A DNA stretch of 64,000 nt, from assembly GCA_964550365.1 (NCBI GenBank), contig CAZJZC010000001.1:12863-76862 (forward strand), written 5' to 3'. This stretch comes from an uncultured Gemmatimonadales bacterium (GTDB lineage: Bacteria; Gemmatimonadota; Gemmatimonadetes; Gemmatimonadales; JACORV01). The position numbers were made by a program, and so were the translations under genes. Shown in pieces: positions 17,642-60,916 of the stretch (positions are counted from its first letter, which is position 1; every line of letters starts with the position of its first letter). A model generated the notes under the pieces. That model saw nothing but the letters and a program-made list of their open reading frames with translations, made no database searches and was not told where the DNA came from.

Positions 17642-18445
17642 TCAGTTCCTGATGAGCGCGACCAGGCCGGCGATCGTGAAGGGGATGGTCAGCAGGATGT
17701 TGAGCGTCGAGACGAACTGGTACGGATTGCGGACCGCCCGCGCCGGCACCACGAATCGGTCGCCGGCCTGGATGCTCATCGCGTCGAGCGTCCGCCCTTC
17801 GGTCACGGCCCGTTGCAGGTCGGCCCCGGTGTAGATCCGCTCGAGCCCGCGCTCGATGCGGAACTGGTCGAGCTCGGCATCGACCGCCAGGCCGCCCGCG
17901 ATCTGCAGCACCTCGTTCACCGGCACGTCCACCGGGACGGTGTAGAAGCCCTGCCGCGCCACGGCGCCGATCACCGCGACGCGGATGAGCGCCTGCGCCC
18001 GGACCCGCGGCTCCCGGATGAACTGCGCCAGCCGCTGGGTCAGGAAGTCGTTCAGCTCGACCCGCAGCACGCCGCCCAGCGGGATGGCGCCGACGGTCGG
18101 GAGCACCACCTCGCGCTGGGCCTGCACCGTGAAGGTGTCGGTCAGCGAGGTCTCGCCCTCGACCCGCAGCATGATGCGGTCGCCCACCTGGAAATCGCCC
18201 TCGCTCAGACGGCGGCGGACCAGGTTGGCCTGGGCCCGCGCCTGGGTCCGGATCTGGCTGGAATAGACCGAGGAGTTCGACGCCGTCTCCAGCTGGACCA
18301 GCAGGTCCTGCAGCGCCTGGCGCGTCGCGCGCACCTGGCTGAGCTCGGCGCCGGGGATCTGGGCCGCGGCCGCACCGGCCGCGCCGAACGCCAGCGCGGA
18401 CGCCACGAACACCAGTCGCCACGATCGGGGGAGCACGGCCTTCAT
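17642..18445 (-). CDS. Periplasmic polysaccharide export protein (Wza/EpsE-like, Poly_export + SLBB)
   Basis: Trimmed to ATG 18445 (MKAVLPRSW..., signal AAGAAAAQ). Export-family block LSEGDFQVGDRIMLRV and an SLBB-like C-terminal part. Its stop is only 3 nt from the convergent potD stop. Confidence 0.83.
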   Translation of the reverse strand: MKAVLPRSWRLVFVASALAFGAAGAAAAQIPGAELSQVRATRQALQDLLVQLETASNSSVYSSQIRTQARAQANLVRRRLSEGDFQVGDRIMLRVEGETSLTDTFTVQAQREVVLPTVGAIPLGGVLRVELNDFLTQRLAQFIREPRVRAQALIRVAVIGAVARQGFYTVPVDVPVNEVLQIAGGLAVDAELDQFRIERGLERIYTGADLQRAVTEGRTLDAMSIQAGDRFVVPARAVRNPYQFVSTLNILLTIPFTIAGLVALIRN

Positions 18446-18602
18446 GGGAGGGAAGTCTATGACGCCCCGGAGCCCCGCGCCACCCGGCGCGGGCCGGTGT
18501 GGGCGGTGGCGGTCGGAGGTGGGGGGCTCACCGGGACGGCGCGACCTGGGACGCAACCGCCCGCGATGAGGACCGCACCCACCTCAGACCATGGCGTGTT
18601 CG

Positions 18603-18818
18603 TTATGCTCCGCGCCGCAGCAGGATGGGACCTCCGACCAGCCCGAAACGCGCGAACTCACCCAGCTTGCGCGTGGCACTGCCCGCCGGCTGACCCGTCA
18701 GGGCCCGGCCGCACTGCCCGCACTCCTCGTCGGCTGCATCGCGCATCGGCCACATGGAACCGCGGCCGACACGCCGTCGATCCACCGTCCGCCCCGTGGC
18801 GCATTCCTCGCACAGCAT
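18603..18818 (-). CDS. Candidate small zinc-ribbon protein (71 aa), unannotated type
   Basis: ORF MLCEEC...(26 aa)...CGQCG has two CxxC pairs. GAGGTGAGGGGG lies 7-18 nt upstream of the ATG. By my count 55 of 70 third codon positions are G/C. It lies 157 nt upstream of the Wza-like gene on the same strand. Confidence 0.4.
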   Translation of the reverse strand: MLCEECATGRTVDRRRVGRGSMWPMRDAADEECGQCGRALTGQPAGSATRKLGEFARFGLVGGPILLRRGA

Positions 18819-19168
18819 AGACCTGCCCCCTCACCTCGCGCTCACCTTCACAACCACCGGGACGACACGATACAAGTTCGGGGCCACGACTCGGGGCAAC
18901 CGTCCAAGCATTCGATTGCACAACGACTTGGCCGCCCGTCCAGGATCGGTCCCGGCCGCCGTTTCCGTTGCGCCGCCGCGTCAGACTCGACCGTCGCGGC
19001 TGGGGTTTTGTCGCATTGCTGTTACAGTGAAGACCGGCGGTGAATCGTTAACATGTTGCTGTTGAAAGGTTTACACATGTTGAGAGCGTTCGCATGGGTT
19101 CTGCGGTGGTTTGAGCGCACCGCAGACCCGCCGGCAGCGCCTGGGAAGCTCCGCCGGAGGCTACACGC

Positions 19169-20143
19169 ATGGGTATCCGCGGCGACGACAGCCCTTTGAG
19201 GACCTCCATGGCCGAGCCGGGCCGCAGCCATCCGCCTCTCGTCGTGATCGCGAACAGCCAGGAGTGGCATACGCGATCGCTCGAGAGCATCCTCGGCCCG
19301 CACGGGTTCGCCGTGCTGCGCGCCTATACCGGCCGTCAGGCCCTCGAGCGCGTCCTCAGTGCCCAGCCCGACATCGTCATCCTCGACACCGACCTGCCCG
19401 ACATCGACGGCCTCGAAGTCTGCCGTCAGCTGCGCTCCGACGCCCGCGTGAGCGGCAGCACGCCGATCCTGATCACCAGCCCCGGGCACCCGAGCCGGCA
19501 CAAGCGGCTCGAGGCCCTGCGCGCGGGCGCCTGGGATTTCCTCGGCCCGACGCTCGACGGCGAGGAGCTGCCGCTCAGGCTCGACGCCTACGTGCGGGCG
19601 AAGTTCGACGCCGATCGGGCCCGCGAGGAGAGCCTGCTCGATCAGCTGACCGGCCTCTACAACATCCGCGGCCTGGCGCGGCGGGCCCGCGAGCTCGGCT
19701 CGCAGGCGTTCCGTCACCGCGAGCCGTTCGCCTGCGTGGTGTTCGCGCCGATGCTGGACGGGAGCTGGATGGCCGACGACGCCGCCTCGGAGTCGGCGCT
19801 GAACGCGGCCGTGGAGCAGCTGGCGAAGGCCCTGCGGGAGACCGGGCGGGTGTCCGACGCGATCGGGCGGCTCGGGCCGACGGAGTTCGCCATCGTGGCG
19901 CAGGGCACCGACCGCGAAGGCGCGGTGCGGCTGGCCGAGCGCCTGCAGCGCTCGCTCCAGGCCATGCTGGCCGATACCGAGCAGCGGTTCCGGATGTGCG
20001 CCGGGTACGATGCGGTGGACGATTATCACGAAGCGCCGATCGAGCCGTCGGACATGCTGGTGCGCGCCACGATGGCGATGCGCCTGTCGCGGTCCGACAG
20101 CGCCGGGAGCTGGATCCGGCCGTTCGAGGCCCGGGTCAACTGA
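19169..20143 (+). CDS. Atypical response-regulator receiver fused to a degenerate GGDEF domain (GPTEF) with retained RxxD I-site
   Basis: 324 aa with GGAGG 8 nt upstream of ATG 19169 (alternative ATG 19208). The REC domain lacks the acidic DD pair (VVIANSQEW) and the conserved Lys (GAWDFLGPT) but keeps the Asp in IVILDTDLPDIDG. The GGDEF region reads GRVSDAIGRLGPTEFAIV, against the canonical RxxD-xxx-RxGG(D/E)EF. Confidence 0.85.
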   Translation: MGIRGDDSPLRTSMAEPGRSHPPLVVIANSQEWHTRSLESILGPHGFAVLRAYTGRQALERVLSAQPDIVILDTDLPDIDGLEVCRQLRSDARVSGSTPILITSPGHPSRHKRLEALRAGAWDFLGPTLDGEELPLRLDAYVRAKFDADRAREESLLDQLTGLYNIRGLARRARELGSQAFRHREPFACVVFAPMLDGSWMADDAASESALNAAVEQLAKALRETGRVSDAIGRLGPTEFAIVAQGTDREGAVRLAERLQRSLQAMLADTEQRFRMCAGYDAVDDYHEAPIEPSDMLVRATMAMRLSRSDSAGSWIRPFEARVN

Positions 20144-20155
20144 CGGGGCGGGTCC

Positions 20156-22570
20156 CTAGCTGCTCCCCGCGATGAGCCGACCCGCGCCGGTGGCGGTCCC
20201 GGCCGCCTGGACCTCGTCGTCGGCGGCATACCCCGGCAGGTAGCTGTAGTACTTGTAGATCCCCTCCGGCTTCACGTCGTTCAGCACCGCGCCCAGCACC
20301 CGGATCGGCAGACGGTCGAGGTCGCCCAGCTTGGCGCCGGTCAGTTCCTTGTTGGTCACGCCGGTCCGCAGCACCAGCAGCAGGTTCCCCGTCAGTGATC
20401 CCAGCACCAGCGGATCGACGCCCGCGCCCAGCGGCGCCGAGTCGACGATGATGACGCCGTACTGCGACCGCAGGCTGATGAGCAGCTGGCTCATGGCCGG
20501 CGAGGCCAGGAGCTCCGGGCCGCCCGCCCGCCGCGTGCCGCAGCCGATGAAGTCGACCGACGGCAGGCTGGTGTGCTGGATGACCTGCTCGCGCTCGGCG
20601 TGGCCGCCCAGGTAGTCGATGAGCCCCGGCTTGCGGTTCGCCTTGAGGACCCGGTGCAGGGTGCCGCGCCGGATGTCGCCGTCGATGAGCAGGGTGCGGT
20701 GGCCGGCGTCGGCGAACGACAGTGCCAGGTTGCTGGCCAGGAAGGACTTCCCGTCGCCGCTGCCGGGACTGGTGATGGTGACGACCAGCGGCCCGGCCGA
20801 ACCGTGGGCGGTCACGATGCGCAGTCGCACCGACCGCAGTGCCTCGACCACCTGCGCCGAGGCCTCGTCCCGACCCGACCCCGCGTTCAGCCGCGGGATC
20901 GCCCCCAGGATGTCGAGGCCGAGCTCCTCGGTCACCTGGTCGGGGTAGCGCAGGCGGCGGTCGAACCGGTCGAGCAGCAGCGCCAGCGCGATGCCGAGGG
21001 CCAGCGAGCCGGCCATGCTGCCCAGCGCGACCAGCGGCTTGATGTTCTTGGTCGGCCGGTCGGGGACCACCGCCGGGTCGAGGATCCGGACGTCCGGGAT
21101 GCTGCTGGCCTCGGCCAGCCGGGCCTCGCTGTAGCGGGCCTGGAGGTTGGTATACAGCTGGTTGGCGATGGTGACGTCGCGCGAGAGCCGCGCCTCCTCG
21201 ATGGCGCGCGTCGGGATCTCCCGCAGGTCGCGCGAGGCGACGTTGATGCGCTCGTTGAGGAACGACTCGCGGGTGCGCATGTCGTCGAGCAGCGACCGCA
21301 TCATGGCCGGGATGCCCTGGCGCTGCAGCCCCCGGATCTCGGACAGCTGCCGCTCGACCTGCGGGTTGTCGTCGGTATAGCGCAGGCGGAGGATCCGCAG
21401 GGCCGCCTGTTTCGCCGTCAGGTCCGACAGGGCCGCGCGCAGCTCCGAGTTGCTCTGGATCGACGGGATCGCCTCGAGCACCACCGCCGAGATGCCGCTG
21501 TCCGGCGGCTGCTGCAGCACGCGCTGGATCGCCTCGCGGTCACGGCGCAGCTGGTCGCTCTCGCTGCGCATGTTGAAGTAGCTCTGCAGCGCCGGCGTCT
21601 GGGTCATCTGCAGTCCCGACACCACCGGCGGCGCCTGCTCCTCGCGCGGCAGGGTGATGGTGTTGACCTTGAAGGTCTCGAGCGCGTTCTCGGCGCGGCG
21701 CAGTTCGACGTACGACGCCTGCAGCTGGGCATCGAGGATGCGCGTCAGCTCCGTCAGCTTCTCCCGCTTCAGGTTGCGCGCCACCGACACGAACTGTTCG
21801 GCGATCGAGTTGAGGGTCGCCGCCGTCAGCGCCGGCACCCGGCCGTCCAGCGTGAGCTTGAGGAAGTTCCCGTCGCGCGGCGGAAGCACGGCGCCGAGGC
21901 GGGCGTTCAGGCCCACCGCCGCCTGCCGCGGCACGGTCACGCTGAAGCCGACGACGCGCCCGGGACGGAACGCCGTGGCCGGCGGCAGCCAGCGGAAGCC
22001 CGCGGGCACCCCGACCGAGTCACCCGCCGCACCGCGCTGCACCTCGCCCGCCACGTTGTGGAGCAGCACGAACGAGCGGCCGTCGGCACTGGCCCGGAAC
22101 TCGTAGCGGCCCGGGCGGAACCGGTCCATCAGCTCGAAGCTGCTGAACAGCGGGGCATCCAGCCCCGGGTTCTCGATCGACAGGTACAGCCGCTGGGCCT
22201 TCACAACCGAGTCCAGCACCGTGAACGAGCGGAGCAGGTCCAGCCAGTTGGTGTTCTGCAGCAGCTGCCCCTGCTGGATCGGGCCCTGGGTGCCCGCCAT
22301 CGGTTCGACCCAGATGGTGGCCTGCGCCTGGTAGACCGGATCGAGGATGCGGGCCACGGTCACGCCGCCGGCCGCGCCGACGACCGTCAGGAAGGCGACC
22401 AGCCACTTGTAGCGCCCGACCGCCGCCAGGTACCGGCCGAAGTCCGGCCCGCGCTCCTCGGCGGGCAGCGGCGGCGGCGCATTGTAGCCCGATGGCACCG
22501 CGGCGGGGTCGGCCCGCACGATGGCCGTGCCGTCCGAACCCTCGAGACCCGCTGGCAGATTGCTCGACAT
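20156..22570 (-). CDS. Polysaccharide co-polymerase / tyrosine autokinase (Wzc/GumC-type BY-kinase)
   Basis: The 1595-aa track ORF was trimmed to ATG 22570 (804 aa). Two TM segments flank a long coiled periplasmic domain. Walker A SPGSGDGKS, A' LLIDGDIRR, Walker B IIVDSAP, and a Tyr-rich tail YKYYSYLPGY. Confidence 0.92.
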   Translation of the reverse strand: MSSNLPAGLEGSDGTAIVRADPAAVPSGYNAPPPLPAEERGPDFGRYLAAVGRYKWLVAFLTVVGAAGGVTVARILDPVYQAQATIWVEPMAGTQGPIQQGQLLQNTNWLDLLRSFTVLDSVVKAQRLYLSIENPGLDAPLFSSFELMDRFRPGRYEFRASADGRSFVLLHNVAGEVQRGAAGDSVGVPAGFRWLPPATAFRPGRVVGFSVTVPRQAAVGLNARLGAVLPPRDGNFLKLTLDGRVPALTAATLNSIAEQFVSVARNLKREKLTELTRILDAQLQASYVELRRAENALETFKVNTITLPREEQAPPVVSGLQMTQTPALQSYFNMRSESDQLRRDREAIQRVLQQPPDSGISAVVLEAIPSIQSNSELRAALSDLTAKQAALRILRLRYTDDNPQVERQLSEIRGLQRQGIPAMMRSLLDDMRTRESFLNERINVASRDLREIPTRAIEEARLSRDVTIANQLYTNLQARYSEARLAEASSIPDVRILDPAVVPDRPTKNIKPLVALGSMAGSLALGIALALLLDRFDRRLRYPDQVTEELGLDILGAIPRLNAGSGRDEASAQVVEALRSVRLRIVTAHGSAGPLVVTITSPGSGDGKSFLASNLALSFADAGHRTLLIDGDIRRGTLHRVLKANRKPGLIDYLGGHAEREQVIQHTSLPSVDFIGCGTRRAGGPELLASPAMSQLLISLRSQYGVIIVDSAPLGAGVDPLVLGSLTGNLLLVLRTGVTNKELTGAKLGDLDRLPIRVLGAVLNDVKPEGIYKYYSYLPGYAADDEVQAAGTATGAGRLIAGSS

Positions 22571-22683
22571 TCGCTTCTCTACCCCTGGATTCTGGCCGCT
22601 CGCCGCGGAGGGTCCCCCCTCCCGGTCGCGGCACGCCGCTGAATATACGCCTTTTTCTCCCGGCGGAGCTTGCCGCCGCCAAG

Positions 22684-22741
22684 CTGTTGCAGTAACGCAA
22701 CCTTTGGGCCATGCCGCAGGACTGTTGCGCCGGAACAACGT
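22684..22741. promoter_or_regulatory. Two tandem copies of a CTGTTG-N8-CAAC.. inverted repeat (candidate transcription-factor sites)
   Basis: 22684-22703 reads CTGTTGcagtaacgCAACCT and 22722-22741 reads CTGTTGcgccggaaCAACGT, with identical 8-nt spacing. Both lie in the divergent region between the BY-kinase and the sigma-54 activator. The same motif occurs at 25525 and 60874. Confidence 0.4.
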
Positions 22742-22748
22742 TGCACCC

Positions 22749-22777
22749 TTGACATACCCCCGTCCGACTCCCCTAAT
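22749..22777 (+). promoter_or_regulatory. Sigma-70-like promoter candidate (TTGACA-N17-CCTAAT)
   Basis: Perfect -35 hexamer TTGACA at 22749-22754. A 17-nt spacer precedes CCTAAT at 22772-22777, about 80 nt upstream of the activator ATG. Confidence 0.35.
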
Positions 22778-22801
22778 TGCACGTTTCGGCAGAACTCCGT
22801 G

Positions 22802-22830
22802 CCCCCCGGGTCGTGCCGGGGGGTTTTGTT
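22802..22830 (+). terminator. Intrinsic-terminator-like hairpin with T-tract inside the 5' leader of the sigma-54 activator gene
   Basis: CCCCCCGG gtcgtg CCGGGGGG followed by TTTTGTT, ending 28 nt before ATG 22859. There is no upstream plus-strand gene for it to terminate. Confidence 0.45.
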
Positions 22831-22858
22831 CCACCGCCGCGCACCTGGACGACACTGG

Positions 22859-24340
22859 ATGACCGCGATCCCGGCTTCGAACACCCTGGTGATCAGCGCC
22901 GAGGCCAAGGCCAGCCTCGCCGTGCTGATCATCGACGATGAGCGCACCTTGCGCGAGAGCTGCAAGAGCGTCCTGGAGGCCGACGGCTTCCGGGTCGAGG
23001 TGTGCGCCCGCGGCGCCGACGCCCAGCAGCTCATCCAGCGGCGGCGCTACGACATCATCCTGACCGACCTGTACATGTCGGACGTCACCGGGATGGACCT
23101 GCTCAAGGCCGCCCTCGAGGCGGCGCCCGAGACCCTGGTGATCGTGATGACCGGCAACCCGAGCGTGGCGTCGAACGTCGAAGCGTTGCGCGCGGGCGCC
23201 TGGGACTACATCCCGAAACCGTTCTCGGCGACCCATCTCCAGATCCTGCTGGGCCGCGCCGCCCATGCGGTGATGGTGGCGCGGGAATCCTCGGCCAGTC
23301 ACGTCGGCGACGACGACTCGCCGGTGCAGCTGCTGGGCACCTCGCCGGAGTTCCGGCGGGCCCTCGAGCTCGCCCGCAAGGTGGCCGTGACCGACGCCTC
23401 GGTGTTCATCACCGGCGAGAGCGGGACCGGCAAGGAGATGATCGCGCAGTTCATCCACGCCCACAGCCGCCGCAGTTCGCGGCCCATCGTGGCGGTCAAC
23501 TGCGCCGCCCTGCCCGAGGCCCTGCTCGAGTCCGAGATGTTCGGGCACATGAAGGGCGCCTTCACCGGCGCCGTGAAGGACAAGGCCGGCCTGCTGGAGG
23601 CCGCCAACGGCGGCACCCTGTTCCTCGACGAGCTGATCGAGATGCCCAAGCCGGTCCAGGCCAAGCTGCTGCGCGTGATCCAGGACGGCGTGGTCCGGCG
23701 GCTCGGCAGTGCGCAGACCAGCGCGGTGGTCAACGTGCGGTTCATCGCGGCATCGAATCGCGACCCCGACGAGTCCGTGCGTGACGGCGCCCTCCGTGAG
23801 GACCTGTACTACCGCCTGCGCGTGGTGCCGATCCACCTGCCGCCCCTGCGCGAGCGGCCCGAGGACATCACCCTGCTGGCGAACCACTTCCTGACGCTGT
23901 ACTGGCGCCGGCACCGGGGCGCCAATGCTCCTCTGCCCACGCTGTCCGACGGCGCCCTGAGCGCGCTGGCGGCGCACGGCTGGCCGGGCAACGTGCGCGA
24001 ACTGCAGAACGCCATCGAGCACACGGTGGTCCTGCTCGAACCCGGGCAGGAGATCCAGCAGAAGGACATCCCGTTCCCCGGGACCGACCGGCCGGCGACC
24101 GGCGGCGCGGACGTCACGACCCCGATGTGGAACGACGAGGAGCTGGAGCAGAGCTACCACGCGGCGCGCGAGCGGGTGATCGCGACCTTCGAGCGCCGCT
24201 ACCTCACCTGGCTGGTCAACCGCGCCGGCGGGAACATGTCCAAGGCCGCGCGGCTGGCCGGCGTCGACCGGACCACGCTCTATCGGCTGATGGAGCGGCA
24301 CGGACTGCAGCGTGAAACCATCACCGTCGCGTCGGAGTAG
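22859..24340 (+). CDS. Sigma-54-dependent response regulator (NtrC/PrsR-like bacterial enhancer-binding protein)
   Basis: Trimmed to ATG 22859 (493 aa). Canonical REC (IIDDE, IILTDLYM, VMTG, IPKPF). AAA+ with GESGTGKE, the GAFTGA sigma-54 contact loop, GGTLFLDEL and WPGNVRELQN. C-terminal Fis-type HTH NMSKAARLAGVDRTTLYRLMERHGL. Confidence 0.93.
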   Translation: MTAIPASNTLVISAEAKASLAVLIIDDERTLRESCKSVLEADGFRVEVCARGADAQQLIQRRRYDIILTDLYMSDVTGMDLLKAALEAAPETLVIVMTGNPSVASNVEALRAGAWDYIPKPFSATHLQILLGRAAHAVMVARESSASHVGDDDSPVQLLGTSPEFRRALELARKVAVTDASVFITGESGTGKEMIAQFIHAHSRRSSRPIVAVNCAALPEALLESEMFGHMKGAFTGAVKDKAGLLEAANGGTLFLDELIEMPKPVQAKLLRVIQDGVVRRLGSAQTSAVVNVRFIAASNRDPDESVRDGALREDLYYRLRVVPIHLPPLRERPEDITLLANHFLTLYWRRHRGANAPLPTLSDGALSALAAHGWPGNVRELQNAIEHTVVLLEPGQEIQQKDIPFPGTDRPATGGADVTTPMWNDEELEQSYHAARERVIATFERRYLTWLVNRAGGNMSKAARLAGVDRTTLYRLMERHGLQRETITVASE

Positions 24341-24341
24341 C

Positions 24342-25508
24342 ATGACCGGCCACGGGACCGAACTCGGTCGCGCCGGCGCCCGTCGCGAACGGGTGGCCGA
24401 GCGGCCCGCCCCGGCGGCGGCCGAGAGCACCGCCGGGCAACTCGGCGGCGCCCTCGAGAGCGTCGGCTTCCCGGAGATCCGCGCGGCCGCGCAGGCCGTG
24501 CTCGCCGCCTGGACCAACACGCGGGGCGACGCCGCCGACCCCGCCGAGGCCCGGCAGGCGGTCATCTGGCTGGCCGACGCGGTGGACCGCGTGGCGCGCG
24601 GCGGGACGGTCGGCGCCGAAACGCCGGCCTCGACGCCGCTGGGCCGCCACCTGCTGGCCGAACTGCGGGGCGAACTGGTGCGGGCCTGGCACGCGGCCGG
24701 CGACGCGGGCCCGGACATGCTGGAGGTGCTCGGGGCGATCGAAACGGTCCGCCGGGCCATCGAGCCCGACTGGGCCGAGTACTTCACGTCGCGCCTCTCG
24801 GGGCCCGACGGCCTGGACCTCGTGGTGGAGGTCGCCCACGACCTGCGCTCGCCGGTGACCTCGATCATCTTCCTCGCCGAAACGCTCACCCGCGGCCAGA
24901 GCGGCGAGGTGAACGAGCTCCAGAAGCGGCAGCTGCGCCTCATCTACAGCGCCGCCCTGGGCCTCTCGTCCATGGCCAGCGACGTCATCGAACTGGCCCG
25001 CGGCGGCGACCAGCTGGTCGAGCGGGAGGTGTCGCCGTTCTCGGTCGCCGAGATCCTGGAGTCGGTCTCGGACATGGTGCGGCCGATCGCCGAGGAGAAG
25101 GGCCTCGCGATCCGGTTCACGCCGCCGCCCACCGACCACCGGCTCGGCCGGCCCCTGGCGCTCAGCCGGGTCCTGCTCAACCTCACGACCAACGCCCTCA
25201 AGTTCACCGACGACGGCTTCGTGGAGATCAGTACCCGCGCCCGCGGCCTGCAGGCCGTCGAGTTCAGCGTGCGCGACACCGGCCAGGGCATCTCCGAGGA
25301 GGCGCTCGCCAACCTGTACCAGCCGTTCCGGCGGACCCGGGCGCGGGCCGGCCGCAGCGGCTACTACTTCTCGGGCACCGGTCTGGGTCTGGCCATGTGC
25401 CGCAAGCTGGTCGAAGCGATGGGTGGAGAGTTGCAACTTGAAACGAAACCGGGCTGGGGGACCAGGTTCTTCTTCGAGTTGGCGTTGCCGCCGTCGAGTC
25501 ATTTGTAG
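24342..25508 (+). CDS. Soluble sensor histidine kinase (HisKA + HATPase_c) with uncharacterised ~170-aa N-terminal domain
   Basis: ATG 24342 lies 1 nt after the regulator stop. H-box EVAHDLRSPVTSI, N-box LLNLTTNALKFT, G1 VRDTGQGIS, G2 GTGLGLAMC. No hydrophobic TM segment is visible. Confidence 0.9.
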   Translation: MTGHGTELGRAGARRERVAERPAPAAAESTAGQLGGALESVGFPEIRAAAQAVLAAWTNTRGDAADPAEARQAVIWLADAVDRVARGGTVGAETPASTPLGRHLLAELRGELVRAWHAAGDAGPDMLEVLGAIETVRRAIEPDWAEYFTSRLSGPDGLDLVVEVAHDLRSPVTSIIFLAETLTRGQSGEVNELQKRQLRLIYSAALGLSSMASDVIELARGGDQLVEREVSPFSVAEILESVSDMVRPIAEEKGLAIRFTPPPTDHRLGRPLALSRVLLNLTTNALKFTDDGFVEISTRARGLQAVEFSVRDTGQGISEEALANLYQPFRRTRARAGRSGYYFSGTGLGLAMCRKLVEAMGGELQLETKPGWGTRFFFELALPPSSHL

Positions 25509-25524: not shown

Positions 25525-25544
25525 CTGTTGCGCTGCCACAACAG
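25525..25544. promoter_or_regulatory. Perfect inverted repeat CTGTTG-N8-CAACAG (candidate enhancer/UAS)
   Basis: CTGTTGcgctgccaCAACAG sits in the lower-GC intergenic region upstream of the priming-transferase/exosortase operon. It shares CTGTTGCGC with the site at 22722. Confidence 0.42.
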
Positions 25545-25648
25545 ACCGCCACATGTCGCAACATCCCGGTACTGTAGCAGTCACGACACAGTAACATAAC
25601 GTGATGTAATGCAACGGTTTACGCTGTTAAGCGTGACCGGGCACACAC

Positions 25649-25664
25649 AAGCACGTTCCTTGCT
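25649..25664 (+). promoter_or_regulatory. Weak sigma-54-like -24/-12 element (AAGCACG-N4-TTGCT)
   Basis: It matches the consensus TGGCACG-N4-TTGCW with correct spacing in all but the first two positions, so it has AG instead of the GG dinucleotide. An overlapping GGGCAC at 25639-25644 has the GG but is 1 nt off in spacing. The element lies 105 bp downstream of the palindrome, and its end is 18 nt before ATG 25683. Confidence 0.28.
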
Positions 25665-25682: not shown

Positions 25683-26408
25683 ATGACAGCCATCGAACTC
25701 GTTCGTTCCGACCTTACTGCCGACCGAGCCCGCGCGGAGGCCTTCGAGCCGCCGGCCGACGACGTTGCCGAATCGCGCGCCCGCCGGATCCTCAACATCC
25801 TGGTGGCCGCGATCGGCCTGGTGCTCACCGCTCCGCTGCTGCTGGTCATCGCCGTGGCCGTGCGGCTGACGTCGCCGGGACCGATCCTCTACCGGCAGGT
25901 TCGGGTCGGCCTCGACCGCCGCAGTCCCCGCCTGCCCGTGGGCAACCACCGGCGCGCCATCGACTACGGCGGGAAGCCGTTCACCATCTACAAGTTCCGG
26001 ACGATGGCCGCGACCGCCTCGCGCAGCAGCCGCCAGGTGTGGGCCTCGCCGAACGACGCCCGGGTCACGCCGCTCGGCCGGCTGCTGCGCAAGTACCGGC
26101 TCGACGAGCTGCCGCAGCTGGTCAACGTGCTGCGCGGCGACATGAACGTCGTCGGCCCGCGTCCCGAGCAGCCGACCATCTTCGCCGACCTGCGCCAGCA
26201 GGTGCCGCAGTACGGCGAGCGGCAGCGGGCGCGTCCCGGCATCACGGGCTGGGCCCAGATCAATCACCATTACGACCGCTCGATCGACGACGTGCGCCGC
26301 AAGGTGGCGCTCGACCTGGAGTACATCGCCCGGCAGTCGCTGAGAGAGGATCTCCGCATCATGCTGCGGACCGCCCCCGTGCTGGTGTTCAAGAAGGGGG
26401 CTTGGTAG
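25683..26408 (+). CDS. Polyprenyl-phosphate sugar-1-phosphate transferase (Bac_transf family priming enzyme, WbaP/EpsB-like short form)
   Basis: 241 aa with one TM (ILNILVAAIGLVLTAPLLLVIAV). Family motifs include PILYRQVRVG, YKFRTM, DELPQLVNVLRGDMNVVGPRPE and PGITGWAQI. Confidence 0.92.
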   Translation: MTAIELVRSDLTADRARAEAFEPPADDVAESRARRILNILVAAIGLVLTAPLLLVIAVAVRLTSPGPILYRQVRVGLDRRSPRLPVGNHRRAIDYGGKPFTIYKFRTMAATASRSSRQVWASPNDARVTPLGRLLRKYRLDELPQLVNVLRGDMNVVGPRPEQPTIFADLRQQVPQYGERQRARPGITGWAQINHHYDRSIDDVRRKVALDLEYIARQSLREDLRIMLRTAPVLVFKKGAW

Positions 26409-26412
26409 TAGC

Positions 26413-27285
26413 TTGACCGGTGTGGCGACCTCGATGCGGCCGCTCCCATTCCCGATGAAGACGCCAGCGCCGACCACGATCGTCACGGCGCTGGCGTTCC
26501 TCGTTCTGTTCTGGCAGCCCATGAGCACCATGGCGCGGGACTGGTGGAACGACCCGGACGCCGGCCACGGCCTGCTGCTGTTCCCGGTCGCCCTGTACCT
26601 CGCCTGGCGCCGCGGCCGGGCCCCGGCCGCCGCCGAACAGCCGGTACTCGGGCTGGTCCTGCTCCTCGCGGCCGTCGCCCTCCGGTACGTCTCGGGCCTG
26701 GCGGCGGAGCTGTACACCATGCGGCTGTCCATGCTGGGCGCGCTGGCCGGCCTGATCATCGTCCGCAACGGCGTGCGCCAGATCCTGCACTGGTGGCTGC
26801 CGACCACCCTGGTGCTGCTGTCGGTGCCGCTGCCGGCGGTGGTCCTGGGCACCCTGGCCCTGCCGCTCCAGCTGATCGCCTCCGAGTGGGGGGCGGCCCT
26901 GCTCGAGGCCCGCCATGTCCCGGTCCGCCTGGCAGGGAATGTGCTCTATCTGCCGGGACGGTCGCTCTTCGTGACCGAGGCCTGCAGCGGCCTGCGATCG
27001 CTGACGGCGCTGGTGGCGCTGGGGGTCCTGATCGGCGGCCTGTCGCTCCGTTCGGTCTGGGCACGGGTCCTGCTCATCGGAGCAGCGATCCCGGTCGCGA
27101 TCGCGCTCAACGCGGTCCGGATCTTCCTGACCGGTTTCCTCGTCTATTTCGTCAGCCCCAGCCTGGCCGAAGGGGTGATGCACTACTCGGAGGGCTGGGC
27201 CATGTTCGTCATCGCCTTCGCGGCCCTCGGGGCCATCGCGTTCCTCCTGTTGCAGGCCGAGCGCCTGCTCCGGAGGCTCGCGTGA
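26413..27285 (+). CDS. Exosortase (EpsH/Xrt family transpeptidase)
   Basis: 290 aa, polytopic. Catalytic-motif regions are FVTEACSGLRSL (Cys), ALNAVRIFL (Arg) and VMHYSEGWAMF (His). The track start is TTG; in-frame GTG 26422 and ATG 26434 are alternatives. Confidence 0.92.
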   Translation: MTGVATSMRPLPFPMKTPAPTTIVTALAFLVLFWQPMSTMARDWWNDPDAGHGLLLFPVALYLAWRRGRAPAAAEQPVLGLVLLLAAVALRYVSGLAAELYTMRLSMLGALAGLIIVRNGVRQILHWWLPTTLVLLSVPLPAVVLGTLALPLQLIASEWGAALLEARHVPVRLAGNVLYLPGRSLFVTEACSGLRSLTALVALGVLIGGLSLRSVWARVLLIGAAIPVAIALNAVRIFLTGFLVYFVSPSLAEGVMHYSEGWAMFVIAFAALGAIAFLLLQAERLLRRLA

Positions 27286-43093: not shown

Positions 43094-43824
43094 TGGCCGG
43101 AGCCGACGACTTCCTGATGGCGGCCCGCCGGGGCGACCGCGGGCTCATGCGGTACGCGCGACGCGCCTGGCGGGCACTGCTGGGGTTCCGGATGCCCGTC
43201 GTCCGGCCGCTGGCCGCGATCCTCTACGCCGAATGGAGTTTCCGGCCGACCTACGTGCCGCTGATCCTCAAGATCCTGTACCGCGAGCCGCTGCTGCGCT
43301 ACCGCTGCGCCCGCGTCGGCCGGCGCCTCCAGCTCGGCGGCGCCCTGCCCATGATCATCGGCAACGGCCGCATCGAGATCGGCGACGACGTGTCGATCGA
43401 CACCCGGAACACCTGGATCGTCGGGTTCAAGGTCTCCACCACGCCCGAGCTCGTCATCGGCGACCGGGTCTTCGTCGGCTACCAGACCGTGCTCAGCGTC
43501 GCCAAGCGCATCAGCATCGGCGCCGACACCATGATCGCCGGCAACGTGCAGATCTTCGACAACATCAGCCACCCGCTCTCGCCCGGGCGCCGGCGCCGCG
43601 GCGAGTCGTTCACGCTCGAGGAGGCCGATCCGGTCACCATCGGCACCAACGTGTGGATCGGCAACGGCGCGACCATCATGCGCGGCGTTTCAATCGGAGA
43701 CAACTCCGTGGTCGCCGCCTCCTCCGTCGTGACCAAGCCGGTACCCGCCAACACCCTGGTCGCCGGGAATCCGGCCCGGATCATCAAGCAGATCGAGGAG
43801 GATGAACCCACACCGGCCCCTTAG
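43093..43824 (+). CDS. Left-handed beta-helix (hexapeptide-repeat) acyl/acetyltransferase
   Basis: ATG 43093 overlaps the previous stop (TGATG). 243 aa with hexapeptide runs IGDDVSI, IGDRVFVG, IGADTMIAGNVQI, IGTNVWIGNGATIMRGVSIGDNSVVAA, then NPARII. Confidence 0.85.
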   Translation: MAGADDFLMAARRGDRGLMRYARRAWRALLGFRMPVVRPLAAILYAEWSFRPTYVPLILKILYREPLLRYRCARVGRRLQLGGALPMIIGNGRIEIGDDVSIDTRNTWIVGFKVSTTPELVIGDRVFVGYQTVLSVAKRISIGADTMIAGNVQIFDNISHPLSPGRRRRGESFTLEEADPVTIGTNVWIGNGATIMRGVSIGDNSVVAASSVVTKPVPANTLVAGNPARIIKQIEEDEPTPAP

Positions 43825-43883
43825 CGACACCATCGCGACATCACGTCGTCGTCACCGACTTGGTGATCCACATCACATTTCCT

Positions 43884-43899
43884 TGGCACCCCACGTTCT
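43884..43899 (+). promoter_or_regulatory. Sigma-54-like element with perfect -24 box (TGGCAC-N5-GTTCT)
   Basis: TTGGCACcccacGTTCTT. The -24 hexamer is perfect, but the -12 position has TC instead of GC. It lies about 140 nt upstream of the lipoprotein ATG. Confidence 0.22.
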
Positions 43900-44040
43900 T
43901 TACGCCGTCCGCGATCCGACTCATTATTGACGCTTGAGTCCAGTACGGGCCGTCGCACGTCCGTGCGTGCCCGCCCACGTGGGAACGAGGACCCCGGCAT
44001 GCCCGCATGGAGCGCGCCGCGGTCGAGGAAGGGCCGTCGC

Positions 44041-46185
44041 ATGAACCGCTCATGGTCTCCGTTGCTTCTTGCCTTCGTGTTCATGGCGGCCTGCCGCAAG
44101 GACGTGGGCCCCGATCCCGAACTTCAGCTCACGCCCGACGTGATCGCCTTCGCGGCGGTCAACGGCGGCGCCAATCCCACGCCGCAGAACGTGGTGATCA
44201 CCGAGCCTGGCGGGCGCTCGCTGACCGACATCACCGTCACCATCACCTATGGCGGCGGCGAACCGACGGGCTGGCTGAATGTCACGCTCGGCGGCACCTC
44301 GGCGCCGGCCACGATGACGCTGAACGCCACGACCGGGACGCTCGCGGCGGGGCAGTACTCGGCGACCGTCGAGGTCGCGGCCCCGCTGGCCACCAACTCG
44401 CCGCTGGCCCTGCCGGTGACCTTCCAGGTCGCCAGCCCCGGCGCGGCGGTGATCTCGCTCTCGACCAACACCATCGGCTTCGGCGCCACGGCCGGCGGCA
44501 GCAACCCGCCCTCGCAGACGGTCAGCGTCACGAACAGCGGCGTCGGCGTGCTCAACCTCGGGGTGGGGACCATCACCTACGGCGCGGGACAGCCGACCGG
44601 CTGGCTGGTGGCCTCGCTGAACCAGGCGACGGCCCCGGCGAACCTCACGCTGACGGCCGCGCTCGGCTCGCTGGGCGCCGGGACCTACACGGCCACCGTG
44701 CCGGTGACCTCCACCAACGGCGTCAACAGTCCGCAGAACGTCACCGTCGGCTTCCTGGTCCAGTCGGGTGGTGGTGGCGGCGGCGGCGGCCCACCCAACC
44801 TCATCAACCCGGCCTGCAACCCGTACCCGACGCCGACCGTCCCGGCGCCGCTGCGGACCTTCTACGTCGATGCCGCCGGCGGGAACGATGCGGCCAACGG
44901 CACCACGCCCGCGACGGCGTGGAAGACGCTCCCCCGGGCCAACAACGCGGTCCAGCCGGGCGACCTGGTCCTGGTCCGCGGCGTGTTCTCGAACCAGAAC
45001 ATCCGGCCCATCGTCTCGGGCACCGCGACCAACAAGATCGTCTACCGGGTCCTCCCCGGCGACTCGGCGCGCATCACCATCGGGCAGTTCGACGTGGCCC
45101 TGTGGCTGGACGGCCGCAGCCACATCGTGGTCGACGGGTTCGAGATCAACAACGTGATCAACCCGTTCCTGATGCGCTTCGGCGCGTCGAACAACTGGCT
45201 GTTCAACCTGTACATCCACGACACCGGCGGCAGTATCATCTCCGGCAGCGACGACAACCGGGTCGAGGGCAGCCGCATCCTGCGGGTCGGCAGCGAGGCG
45301 AACAACTCGGGCGACGCCATCTTCATCCAGGACGGCGCCGACCGGAACATCATCGTCCGCAACGAGGTCGGGTTCGGCGGCCACGGGACCATCTGGGTCA
45401 GCTTCCAGAGCGCGTCCGAGCAGACGGCGAACGACAACGTCATCGCGCAGAACGACACCTACAACCCGTGGGCCTCGGGCATGGGCCTGAACGGCAAGGC
45501 GGTCCGCACCATCGTCGAGTGCAACCGCATCCACCACTCGGCCGACGGCACCGGGATCAACTACGCCCGCACCGGCCTGGAGATCGAAGGCATCGACAAC
45601 ATCATCCGCTTCAACGAGCTGTACCGGAGCGGCGCGTTCGGCATGACCGTGCAGGGCCGGACCTTCGGCGGCTTCCTCCAGCATGCGACCGGCAACCTCA
45701 TCTACGGCAACACCTTCTGGCGCAACGGGCGGGGCAGCATCGAACTGGTCCAGCGCGACAACGGCACGGTGCGGAACAACATCTTCGAGAACAACATCCA
45801 CTGGAACGACGCGGGGATGCTGGACCAGGGCACCCGCTACACGATCGTGCTCGACATGTTCAACGCGAACAGCGGCAACATCCTGGCGCCCGGGAACATG
45901 GGCGGCAACATCGTCCGGCACAGCATCTTCCCGCCCAACCAGACCACGGTCCTGATGGTCCGGAAGGCCGGGGACGGCGGCAACACCGCGTACAATCTCG
46001 CCGCGGCGCTCGCCACCTTCACCGGCTGGACGAACATCACCACCAGCGATCCGCTGTTCACGAACGAGGCGCAGGACAACGTGATCCTGCAGACGACGAG
46101 TCCGGCGATCAACGCCGGCCGGGTGATCTCGAACCACCCGTTCCTCGGGTCGGCGCCGGACCTCGGGGCGCGCGAACGCCAGTAG
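44041..46185 (+). CDS. Lipoprotein with two tandem Ig/BACON-like repeats, a Gly8 linker and a right-handed parallel beta-helix (pectate-lyase-fold) domain
   Basis: Trimmed to ATG 44041 (GAGGAAGGG upstream). Lipobox FVFMAAC. Two ~105-aa repeats: ITYGGGEPTGWLNVTL...AGQYSATVEV...NSPLALPVTFQV and ITYGAGQPTGWLVASL...AGTYTATVPV...NSPQNVTVGFLV. GGGGGGGG linker. Beta-helix turns include NRVEGSRI, RNIIVRNEV, NDNVIAQND, NIIRFNELY, GNLIYGNTF and VRNNIFENN. Confidence 0.8.
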   Translation: MNRSWSPLLLAFVFMAACRKDVGPDPELQLTPDVIAFAAVNGGANPTPQNVVITEPGGRSLTDITVTITYGGGEPTGWLNVTLGGTSAPATMTLNATTGTLAAGQYSATVEVAAPLATNSPLALPVTFQVASPGAAVISLSTNTIGFGATAGGSNPPSQTVSVTNSGVGVLNLGVGTITYGAGQPTGWLVASLNQATAPANLTLTAALGSLGAGTYTATVPVTSTNGVNSPQNVTVGFLVQSGGGGGGGGPPNLINPACNPYPTPTVPAPLRTFYVDAAGGNDAANGTTPATAWKTLPRANNAVQPGDLVLVRGVFSNQNIRPIVSGTATNKIVYRVLPGDSARITIGQFDVALWLDGRSHIVVDGFEINNVINPFLMRFGASNNWLFNLYIHDTGGSIISGSDDNRVEGSRILRVGSEANNSGDAIFIQDGADRNIIVRNEVGFGGHGTIWVSFQSASEQTANDNVIAQNDTYNPWASGMGLNGKAVRTIVECNRIHHSADGTGINYARTGLEIEGIDNIIRFNELYRSGAFGMTVQGRTFGGFLQHATGNLIYGNTFWRNGRGSIELVQRDNGTVRNNIFENNIHWNDAGMLDQGTRYTIVLDMFNANSGNILAPGNMGGNIVRHSIFPPNQTTVLMVRKAGDGGNTAYNLAAALATFTGWTNITTSDPLFTNEAQDNVILQTTSPAINAGRVISNHPFLGSAPDLGARERQ

Positions 46186-59495: not shown

Positions 59496-60239
59496 CTAGA
59501 ACTGGTCGATCTGCTCGTCCCGGTTCCGACGCCGCACCAGCCCGACGCCGCCCAGGAACACCAGCCCGGTACCCAGCAGTGTCATCGTCACCGGCTCCGG
59601 CGTCACCATGGCGCACGGCACCCGGCCGTCGCCGCCGAAGCTGTTGTCGCTGCCGCACTCGGCGTCCCCGCCGGCGACGAAGCCGTCGGTCAGCCAGGCG
59701 ACCTCGGCCTGGCTCGCGGACCAGTCGTTGCTGGTCTCGAACGAGAACACCACCCAGCCGGACGCATCGCCGCAGGTCGTGAAGTACGACGACGGGTTCC
59801 GGGTCGACCGCTGGCATCCTTCGATGCCGCCCTCGCCGTTCAGCGGCACGCCGGCCGCGACCTCGATGATGCCGCCCAGGCCGTCGGGCTGACGCAGGGT
59901 CCAGTTCGACGCGCTGCTGCCCGTGACGCCGACAGAACCGGTCGTCGAGACGGAGAGGTTGCCGGCGCCGACGATCGCCGGCGTGATGAGGCCGATGCGG
60001 CGGATGATCGAGCCACCCGTGTTGTCGCCCTGCCACCCGTAGCCCTGCAGGTTGCGGACCCGGATGATGACGTTGGTCCCGCCTCCTGACCGGGCCGACG
60101 TCTGCACCGACAGGCTGGCGCAGGCGCGGATCGCGCCGGGGCTGCAGTAGTTCAGGAAGTCCCTGGTGTCGGCGCGCAACTGGCTGGCTGCGGCAAGCAC
60201 GGCCACGCTGGCACCCACCACTACTCCACTGACTCTCAT
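59496..60239 (-). CDS. PEP-CTERM sorting-domain protein (exosortase cargo), 247 aa
   Basis: Trimmed to ATG 60239. Signal peptide VVGASVAVLAAASQLRA. C-terminal tripartite tag VTPEP-VTMTLLGTGLVFLGGVGLV-RRRNR. The mature part is Gly/Ser/Thr-rich with six Cys. Confidence 0.88.
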   Translation of the reverse strand: MRVSGVVVGASVAVLAAASQLRADTRDFLNYCSPGAIRACASLSVQTSARSGGGTNVIIRVRNLQGYGWQGDNTGGSIIRRIGLITPAIVGAGNLSVSTTGSVGVTGSSASNWTLRQPDGLGGIIEVAAGVPLNGEGGIEGCQRSTRNPSSYFTTCGDASGWVVFSFETSNDWSASQAEVAWLTDGFVAGGDAECGSDNSFGGDGRVPCAMVTPEPVTMTLLGTGLVFLGGVGLVRRRNRDEQIDQF

Positions 60240-60712
60240 GCGTTGCTCCCTTTTCGGATGGCGCCTTGACGCCGATGGATCGCGATCCCGAAACCCACGT
60301 AGAACACGATGTACGACAGACAGAACAGTCCGGTCTTGATGATCGCCCTGATCAGGGCCGGCTTCTGAGCCGGGTTCATGGCGCGGAGCGCCAGCGGCAC
60401 GTCCAGCGCGAAGATCACCAGGGCCCCGATCACCGCCGCCGCCACCAGCCAGGCGAACACGGTCGCGATGCGCGCCGGGATCCGCCAACCCATCTCGATC
60501 GCACCCGCGGCGAACAGACCGAACCCGAGAGTGCCGAGCGGCAGGCCATCGACCGCCGCGCTGATCGAACCGAACTCCCACTCCGGGCTGCCGTAGCCCC
60601 AAGGGATGAACACCATCGTCACGTCGGTCCAGCCGACCACCGCGGCGATCAGACCCAGACCGGCGACCAGGCCCCAACCGGGACCGGCACCATACCCCTG
60701 ACGTTCGGTCAT
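60236..60712 (-). CDS. Hypothetical 4-TM membrane protein (158 aa) translationally coupled to the PEP-CTERM gene
   Basis: Trimmed to ATG 60712. The four hydrophobic helices are GLVAGLGLIAAVVGW, LGTLGFGLFAAGAI, IATVFAWLVAAAVIGALVIFAL and GLFCLSYIVFYVGFGIAI. Its TGA overlaps the next ATG (ATGA). Confidence 0.68.
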   Translation of the reverse strand: MTERQGYGAGPGWGLVAGLGLIAAVVGWTDVTMVFIPWGYGSPEWEFGSISAAVDGLPLGTLGFGLFAAGAIEMGWRIPARIATVFAWLVAAAVIGALVIFALDVPLALRAMNPAQKPALIRAIIKTGLFCLSYIVFYVGFGIAIHRRQGAIRKGSNA

Positions 60713-60782: not shown

Positions 60783-60798
60783 TGCAAGTTCTACACCC
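60783..60798 (-). promoter_or_regulatory. Weak sigma-54-like element (GGGTGT-N5-TTGCA) on the minus strand
   Basis: The minus strand reads cGGGTGTAGAACTTGCAc. The GG and GC dinucleotides have the correct 11-nt register and the -12 box TTGCA is perfect. The -24 box otherwise fits poorly. It lies about 70 nt upstream of ATG 60712 and about 75-95 nt downstream of the palindrome at 60874. Confidence 0.22.
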
Positions 60799-60873: not shown

Positions 60874-60916
60874 TTGTTGCGCGCCCGCATCAGTCGCTGT
60901 GGTGGCGTCACAAGCA
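60874..60916. promoter_or_regulatory. Copies of the CTGTTG-N8-CAACAG-type inverted repeat upstream of the PEP-CTERM cargo operon
   Basis: 60874-60893 reads TTGTTGcgcgcccgCATCAG, with 1 mismatch per half and the same 8-nt spacer starting CGC. 60897-60916 reads CTGTGGtggcgtcaCAAGCA and is weaker. Confidence 0.35.

Follow-up and report, generated by a model that had tools for sequence, protein, structure and literature searches.

The element described here is a pair of tandem palindromes, referred to as S1 and S2, lying between two divergent genes in a 64-kb stretch of DNA (the window) from an uncultured Gemmatimonadales bacterium. According to NCBIfam and Pfam matches, the surrounding cluster consists of exopolysaccharide and exosortase genes. 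On the minus strand, gene 20156-22570 codes for a BY-kinase, or Wzc-type chain-length determinant (TIGR01005, TIGR01007 and Wzc matches), whose start, MSSNLP, is conserved in relatives. Divergent from it, gene 22859-24340 (plus strand) codes for a sigma-54 activator of the NtrC response-regulator family. It is followed on the same strand by genes for a histidine kinase (24312-25508, HisKA and HATPase_c domains) presumed to be the partner of the activator, a priming sugar transferase (25683-26408) and an exosortase (26413-27285). Next come many glycosyltransferase genes, along with genes for a flippase and for Wzy. Further left are found a REC-GGDEF gene (19169-20143, plus strand) and a gene with a weak polysaccharide-export match (17642-18556, minus strand). 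As argued below, S1 and S2 are real and evolutionarily conserved, and are most likely binding sites for the neighbouring sigma-54 activator.

S1 is a 20-nt unit, CTGTTGcagtaacgCAACct, at positions 22684-22703 with an 18-bp core, TGTTGCagtaacGCAACC, at 22685-22702. S2 is the unit CTGTTGcgccggaaCAACgt at 22722-22741 with the core TGTTGCgccggaACAACG at 22723-22740. Both are palindromic and are given without strand. They are spaced 38 bp from start to start and S2 ends 7 nt before a TTGACA hexamer, exactly as a preliminary description of this DNA had reported. The unit was defined there as CTGTTG-N8-CAAC, which in exact form has four matches in the 64 kb for 0.06 expected, a number that none of 100 shuffles equalled. 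These matches represent three sites (22684, 22722 and 25525), as the copy at 25525-25544 is a perfect 20-bp palindrome and is counted on both strands. The other recurrence reported at the time, 60874-60893 (TTGTTG...CATCAG), is imperfect, with two mismatches to the 12 bases specified by that description. The original unit was thus far above chance but has been refined to an 18-bp palindrome, TGTnGC-N6-GCnACA, dyad-symmetric and of a size suited to a dimeric protein with a Fis-type helix-turn-helix (HTH). To the ortholog-derived consensus TGTTGC-N6-GCAACA, the 60875 site has a single mismatch.

The G+C content of the window is 73.6%, and its intergenic DNA is AT-richer (55-66% G+C). The motif test was therefore repeated on 2.47 kb of non-coding DNA with 500 shuffles matched to local composition. 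At no more than one mismatch, TGTTGC-N6-GCAACA was observed three times against 0.016 expected and TGTNGC-N6-GCNACA five times against 0.13, numbers reached in none of the 500 shuffles in either case. In an unbiased count over four regulatory regions, TGTTGC/GCAACA ranked first among over-represented hexamers (6 observed, 0.42 expected). The strict motif at the same tolerance had no match in the coding sequence of the window, which agrees with the earlier statement that the palindrome, in the parts inspected by eye, is confined to intergenic regulatory DNA.

In the genome collection, every relative of the activator at 56-80% identity carries the label Gemmatimonadota, and a metagenome collection provided 80 further related loci; by its sequence the window is itself Gemmatimonadota-like. 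The region within 380 nt upstream of the activator gene was searched in 131 loci with at most one mismatch. The site was present in 88 of them, and 53 carried two in tandem at a spacing of 36-45 bp. Upstream of the sugar-transferase gene, the site was found in 76 of 78 loci at up to two mismatches and in 50 at up to one. A matrix built from 160 distinct sites is symmetric, with the consensus tTGTnGCr-N5-GCnACA. S1 in particular is homologous to CGTTGCaaaggaGCAACA in locus L054 and to CGTTGCAAATGTGCAACA, which is the distal site in the L003 group, and the start-to-start distance of S1 and S2 in relatives is 37-43 bp. The motif is real, specific to non-coding DNA, positionally conserved and co-occurring with the activator and with conserved promoter blocks. 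The proposal of a common operator or enhancer, for which conservation upstream of orthologous operons had been set beforehand as the test, is upheld by these counts. Its attribution to an island-specific regulator is supported as regards the shared motif and the adjacent activator, but the locus is a phylum-wide conserved gene cluster and not a strain-specific island.

Three other transcription units carry the site at a distance from a promoter-like block. Upstream of REC-GGDEF, the conserved full sites are CGTTGCgccgccGCGTCA (18966-18983) and, 43 bp further, TGTCGCattgctGTTACA (19009-19026); they replace the half-site cluster previously placed at 19019-19082. They are followed by a conserved promoter-like block of -24/-12 type, TCGCATGGGTTCTGCG (19090-19105, plus strand), from which the site centres lie at about -141 and -98. 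Sites and block are conserved in L054, L085, L088, L089, L092, L097 and L098, the orthologous blocks reading TCGCACGCGTTCTGCG, AAGCACGACTCGTGCG and GCGCACGCTTCCTGCG. The 18966 site is kept as cGTTGCG-N5-GCGTCA in L085, L088, L089, L092 and L097 and has variants in L054, where GGCAACA replaces GCGTCA, and in L098. The sugar-transferase/exosortase operon is preceded by TGTTGCgctgccACAACA (25526-25543, inside the perfect palindrome), the site with equivalents in the 76 loci mentioned above. A second, weaker site, TGTAGCagtcacGACACA (25573-25590), follows 47 bp downstream, where relatives have a GCTACAG half-site. The site centres are at about -140 and -93 from the -24/-12-type promoter AAGCACGTTCCTTGCT (25649-25664, plus strand), which belongs to a block, nnGCAYR-N4-YTGC, conserved in 68 of the 78 loci; the median distance between the starts of site and block is 124 nt. 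This block has -24/-12 geometry; it is canonical (GGCACGG-N3-CTGC) in L032, L033, L037 and L050, and its first G is often missing elsewhere. L085 shares AGCACG-N4-TTGC with the promoter of the window.

The third unit is a minus-strand operon whose first genes (59496-60712) code for an HpsJ-like membrane protein (60236-60712) and, with an ATGA overlap, for a PEP-CTERM protein (59496-60239). The latter has 247 residues and the tail VTPEPVTMTLLGTGLVFLGGVGLVRRRNR, and scores 19.0 with TIGR02595 for a cut-off of 16; GT2, Wzy and GT4 genes follow in the same operon. Its site, TGTTGCgcgcccGCATCA (60875-60892), is located 77 nt from a canonical GG-N10-GC promoter, GGGTGTAGAACTTGCA (60783-60798, minus strand), with its centre at about -111. 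A 61%-identical relative, L164, has the site CGTCGCgtgaccGCAACA 76 nt before the promoter GGGTTCGATACTTGCG, and the orthologous canonical promoter in L163 is TGGTTCACTTCTTGCT. Homologous HpsJ-like/PEP-CTERM gene pairs occur in the same order in L163 and in reversed order in L161. The intergenic region upstream of a beta-helix protein (43771-44106) contained neither a site nor an in-register promoter. Many of the promoter blocks conserved in this lineage read (C/T/A)GCACG-N4-TTGC, without the first G of the sigma-54 GG. Several are only 13-20 nt from the start codon, so that the leaders would be very short or absent.

The candidate binder, the adjacent Fis-HTH sigma-54 activator already named in the preliminary description, has the organization REC, AAA+ with GAFTGA, HTH_8. 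It matches PF00072, PF00158 and PF02954, with the receiver, Walker A, GAFTGA and Fis-type HTH all present. Its gene has this adjacent position in more than 130 loci, and in most of these its HTH, GNMSKAAR[LI]AGVDRTTLYRLMERHGL, is nearly invariant, which fits an invariant DNA word; the putative recognition helix is DRTTLYRLMERHG. Moreover, no other protein encoded in the conserved neighbourhood, which comprises GGDEF, BY-kinase, activator, kinase, sugar-transferase and exosortase genes, has a DNA-binding domain. It is improbable that a different transcription factor, either a second activator paralog or a global regulator encoded elsewhere, binds the sites and that the adjacent activator is merely a target gene. 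Paralogous activators do exist in some genomes (L040 with L052, L009 with L057) and in the L016 group the activator gene is preceded by a distinct, NtrC-like motif. Nevertheless, motif and activator co-occur in a conserved neighbourhood in over 100 loci, and the HTH is invariant in parallel with the motif. Additionally, this activator family typically has TGT...ACA dyads placed at enhancer distance from -24/-12 promoters; the NifA site is TGT-N10-ACA and the CbrB site TGTTAC-N12-GTAACA.

Binding of the adjacent activator to S1 and S2 would take place in a compact intergenic region. The closest relatives of the window (L054, L081, L082 and L083, 77-79% activator identity) share with it a few blocks in otherwise unalignable DNA, namely AATATAC, S1, nGGnCCA or AGrCCA at 3 nt after S1, S2 at 38-39 bp from S1, and TTGAC[AT]. 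The right half of S1 contains the TTGC of a candidate sigma-54 (-24/-12) promoter facing the BY-kinase gene, TGGCCCAAAGGTTGCG (22696-22711, minus strand), with exact GG-N10-GC spacing. On the minus strand this region reads TGGCCCAAAGGTTGC in the window, TGGCCCAATTGTTGC in L054, TGGCCCGGATGTTGC in L082, TGGTCTGAATGTTGC in L081 and TGGCCTGATTGTTGC in L083. TGG-N9-TTGC is thus in exact register in all five sequences while the bases in between vary, and the block is read as a putative sigma-54 promoter for the BY-kinase gene. S1 would span about -17 to +1 of this promoter, its centre lying near -8 and that of S2 near -46. In other, more distant clades the canonical sigma-54 promoter of the BY-kinase gene sits elsewhere. 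An alternative candidate beside S1, TTGGCGGCGGCAAGCT, was rejected as a second leftward sigma-54 promoter, being one base off.

The same overlap raises the question of whether S1 is mainly a promoter element, TGTTGC/GCAACA being extended sigma-54 -12 boxes (TTGC) and the palindromes by-products. The exact register of the S1 half-site in TGGCCCAAAGGTTGCG and its counterparts argues for this, as does the canonical sigma-54 -12 box reading TGTTGC in L041, L034 and L039. Still, inspection of both strands by hand showed no GG in the required register at S2, 25526 or 60875, and the left half of S1, although located at about +1, is kept as a palindromic partner. In the L003 group, the distal site, homologous to S1, has no -24 partner, separate promoters flank the sites, and the 160-site matrix is symmetric. 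This explanation is accordingly judged slightly less probable still than binding by another factor.

On the other side of S2, TTGACA (22749-22754, plus strand) is a sigma-70-type -35-like hexamer of a putative promoter for the activator-kinase operon, 7 nt after the palindrome. The gap between S2 and TTGAC[AT] is 7-8 nt in five sequences, and this constant spacing speaks for a functional coupling of S2 to that putative promoter. L054, L081, L083 and L086 have TTGACT, followed 17 nt on by a conserved TAnnnn. In the alignment of 16 loci with the neighbourhood BY-kinase (leftward), activator and sugar transferase (rightward), the intergenic region has an invariant leftward sigma-54 promoter (reverse complement CGGTCTRGACCTTGCAA) and two invariant palindromes, yGTTGCAAATnTGCAACA and TGTTGCnnnnnnGCAACC, at a spacing of 42-43 bp. 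About 45-50 bp past the palindromes, the activator gene is preceded by a rightward sigma-54 promoter, GGCCCGATCCCTGCA. More generally, in many relatives the activator gene has a canonical sigma-54 promoter of its own, with the tandem sites about 55-100 bp upstream of it, a classic layout for positive autoregulation. Autoregulation, which had been suggested from the window, is therefore favoured in these relatives, but the window has no such promoter and S2 abuts there the sigma-70-like -35 element.

Reading the palindromes as hairpins (RNA stem-loops, terminators or REP-like repeats) instead of protein sites is very unlikely to be correct. Each unit could form a 6-bp stem, and a genuine terminator-like hairpin is located nearby at 22801-22824. 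Nonetheless, the S1-S2 region folds no better than shuffles (z = +1.13 and +1.20 on the two strands) and the 25526 hairpin reaches just -6.3 kcal/mol (z = -0.5). The variable positions 4 and 15 are complementary in 49% of the 160 sites, for 37% expected. The sites lie upstream of promoters, and Rfam gave no matches. Chance matches in AT-richer intergenic DNA, whose 55-66% G+C against 74% overall favours T/A-containing words, are effectively refuted by the three sites observed for 0.016 expected under local-composition shuffles and by positional conservation in more than 100 loci.

S1 and S2 are thus probably tandem sites for dimers of the adjacent NtrC-family activator, and the same element would mark a small exopolysaccharide/exosortase/PEP-CTERM regulon. 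What is inferred is the identity of the binder, the sigma-54 dependence of the promoters and, tentatively, the sign of regulation at S1 and S2. In the proposed mechanism, the histidine kinase encoded at 24312-25508 would phosphorylate the activator, whose dimers would bind the palindromes and then oligomerise. On distal sites, the activator would remodel the sigma-54 holoenzyme via DNA looping, the targets being the GGDEF, sugar-transferase/exosortase and PEP-CTERM/glycosyltransferase operons. At the divergent region, S1 would supply the TTGC -12 element of the leftward BY-kinase sigma-54 promoter. Given the compact placement of S1 atop this promoter and of S2 between the two promoters, their occupancy by the activator would most likely tune or limit BY-kinase transcription and autoregulate the activator operon.

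Several observations weigh against this model. Centres at about -8 and -46 are not enhancer positions for the leftward promoter, and an activator bound to S1 would compete with the sigma-54 holoenzyme. Facing the activator gene, the window contains no in-register sigma-54 promoter, the nearest candidates being one base off; cGGCAGaactccgTGCc (plus strand) and the off-register GGCACGGAGTTCTGC (22803, minus strand) were rejected for their GG-N11-GC spacing. The TTGACA at 22749-22754 is a perfect -35 hexamer, yet the hexamer 17 nt downstream is CCTAAT. A promoter scanner called no sigma-70 promoter there, for want of a good -10 element after TTGACA. In the non-coding DNA of the window, GG-N8-YTGC strings are not enriched (3 observed, 3.79 expected), so that cross-species conservation carries the promoter calls by itself. 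The first G of the canonical GG is missing in several conserved blocks (AGCACG at 25650, CGCATG at 19091), and a block at 18871-18886 has -24/-12 geometry with the C of its -12 element replaced. The gene rpoN was not observed and would lie outside the 64-kb window. Finally, the large L016 group differs upstream of the activator gene, where its inner motif is GCACCttGGTGC; upstream of the sugar-transferase gene it still has TGTGGC-type sites.

The architecture of this group (L016-L018, L021, L045, L063 and L110-L133) is distinctive. The TGTTGC tandem is replaced by GGTGCAC ... GGATGCACCttGGTGC, resembling an NtrC site, between two divergent sigma-54 promoters. The activator promoter of these loci also has a CGCTGC-N6-GCGACA site at 3 nt from its -24 element.

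Among known systems, the closest is the PEP-CTERM box of Proteobacteria, together with PrsK, PrsR and PrsT. According to its description, a 17-nt activator motif ending in TTTACA lies upstream of PEP-CTERM genes, on average 63 nt from a sigma-54 promoter (Haft et al. 2006; PMC1569441). In that study, the motif was found only in Proteobacteria, and regulators and motifs for PEP-CTERM systems beyond this class, including those outside Proteobacteria, were still to be found (Haft et al. 2006; PMC1569441). In Aquincola, a PEP-CTERM gene has been shown to depend on RpoN (PMC9850573). In both systems, the gene for an NtrC-type response-regulator activator lies next to exopolysaccharide and exosortase genes, and an upstream activator site, sometimes repeated, precedes a -24/-12 promoter. 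The spacers are comparable (about 63 nt on average there, and 76-77 nt for the PEP-CTERM operon of the present system), the targets include a PEP-CTERM protein gene, and TIGR02915 (PrsR) is the second-best NCBIfam match of the activator. With 375.1 bits for a cut-off of 502.6, however, the activator is not a PrsR equivalog. TIGR02916 (PrsK) is not among the best 25 NCBIfam matches of the 398-residue kinase, which are generic and far below cut-offs, and no PrsT was identified here. The site here, TGTnGC-N6-GCnACA, also differs, the comparison being made with the TTTACA end as described. Identity of the two elements was rejected: TTTACA is absent from S1, S2, 25526 and 60875, and the loci do not show GTTTACA systematically. 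Lastly, the phylum here is Gemmatimonadota, and the putative regulon adds biosynthesis, export and regulatory genes to what in Proteobacteria are mainly single PEP-CTERM genes. To judge by its sequence, the system described here is one that works like the PEP-CTERM box/Prs system but is no member of it.

A second precedent is NtrC at glnA, where tandem enhancer sites serve glnAp2, promoter-proximal low-affinity 'governor' sites are present and the sigma-70 promoter glnAp1 is repressed; the NtrC site is TGCACC-N5-GGTGCA. Tandem dyads at about -140 and -100 from the sigma-54 promoter are shared with the GGDEF and sugar-transferase promoters here, as are extra sites near or overlapping promoters. 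One protein can there activate a sigma-54 promoter and affect a sigma-70 promoter. Site sequence, regulon and phylum differ, and here one site itself supplies the -12 element. FleQ of Pseudomonas aeruginosa controls the pel and psl exopolysaccharide promoters via two sites, one upstream of the promoter and one overlapping it. It has no phosphorylatable receiver and works at sigma-70 promoters with FleN and cyclic di-GMP. In common are an enhancer-binding protein over exopolysaccharide genes and a diguanylate cyclase-type gene in the circuit. In contrast, the motif is unrelated, and cyclic di-GMP sensing belongs to FleQ, nothing here pointing to it.

Gemmatimonadota are abundant soil bacteria whose gene regulation is, to our knowledge, almost uncharacterised. 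A literature search with the motif words and on sigma-54/exosortase regulation in Gemmatimonas returned no prior description of the motif or of the regulon. The proposed regulon would combine one two-component sigma-54 activator and one 18-bp site with at least five transcription units: REC-GGDEF, BY-kinase, activator-kinase, sugar transferase-exosortase and the PEP-CTERM/glycosyltransferase/Wzy operon. It would tie signal sensing to exopolysaccharide production and exosortase-dependent protein sorting, and an enhancer site overlapping a sigma-54 promoter would, if true, be an unusual regulatory layout. Such a regulon would address the point left open on regulators outside the class then described (Haft et al. 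2006; PMC1569441). A possible but doubtful extension, taken as a whole, is a phylum-wide Gemmatimonadota sigma-54/activator counterpart of proteobacterial PEP-CTERM regulation. It would have its own enhancer word, TGTnGC-N6-GCnACA, a half-site co-opted as -12 box, a site atop the target promoter as built-in limiter, many promoters with a -24 element without the first G, and near-leaderless transcripts.

Other features of the divergent region accompany S1 and S2. Most relatives keep AATATAC (22642-22648, TATATT when read on the strand of the BY-kinase gene) upstream of that gene, at distances that vary between 22 and 44 nt to S1 and between 9 and 72 nt to the start codon; the block could be an alternative sigma-70 -10 element. 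Class-I activation by S1 of a BY-kinase promoter with this -10-like TATATT (22647 to 22642) is unsupported, the 22-44 nt distance showing no helical phasing. The strong terminator-like hairpin at 22801-22824 (plus strand) has a 9-bp G+C stem (-21.5 kcal/mol, z = -2.2) followed by TTTTGTT, the entire element covering 22801-22831 between TTGACA and the start codon of the activator gene. A role as leader attenuator is possible. L054, L081 and L083 do not conserve this hairpin and have instead a third palindrome-like site, e.g. TGTTGTggctcgGCAACA in L083.

In the window, GGTTTAC has only two copies (19068-19074 and 25616-25622), both between activator sites and promoter block, for 0.58 expected; 10 of 100 shuffles gave at least two. 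It recalls the TTTACA end of the proteobacterial PEP-CTERM box and is not conserved in relatives. Upstream of the export gene, the 18607-18886 region (minus strand) contains a small open reading frame of about 70 residues with two CxxC pairs (MLCEECATG...EECGQCG), whose MLCE start is shared by L054. In front of it lies a highly conserved block of -24/-12 geometry with the -12 C replaced, TGGCCCCGAACTTGTA, which has TTGAA in L054 and L085. The exosortase encoded at 26413-27285 scores above the general EpsH model (151 bits, cut-off 105.6) and below the subtype models (XrtD 176 for 400, XrtA 156 for 208), and is of unclassified subtype.

Variation is also seen around the activator gene of relatives. 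In L002-L014 and related loci, the sugar-transferase gene directly follows the activator gene with no histidine kinase gene in between, which makes the activator of these loci an orphan, and the sugar-transferase leader contains a conserved hairpin, GGGGGGCCGAnAnGGCCCCGTTAGC. Some genomes have two paralogous activator copies, both of them with exopolysaccharide neighbours; L040 and L052 are on one contig, L009 and L057 in one metagenome-assembled genome. In L140, downstream of the kinase gene (about 2540-2620), a tandem array of units of about 8 nt is found, with runs of cgtatccc and then cgtatctcgtatcc-type units.

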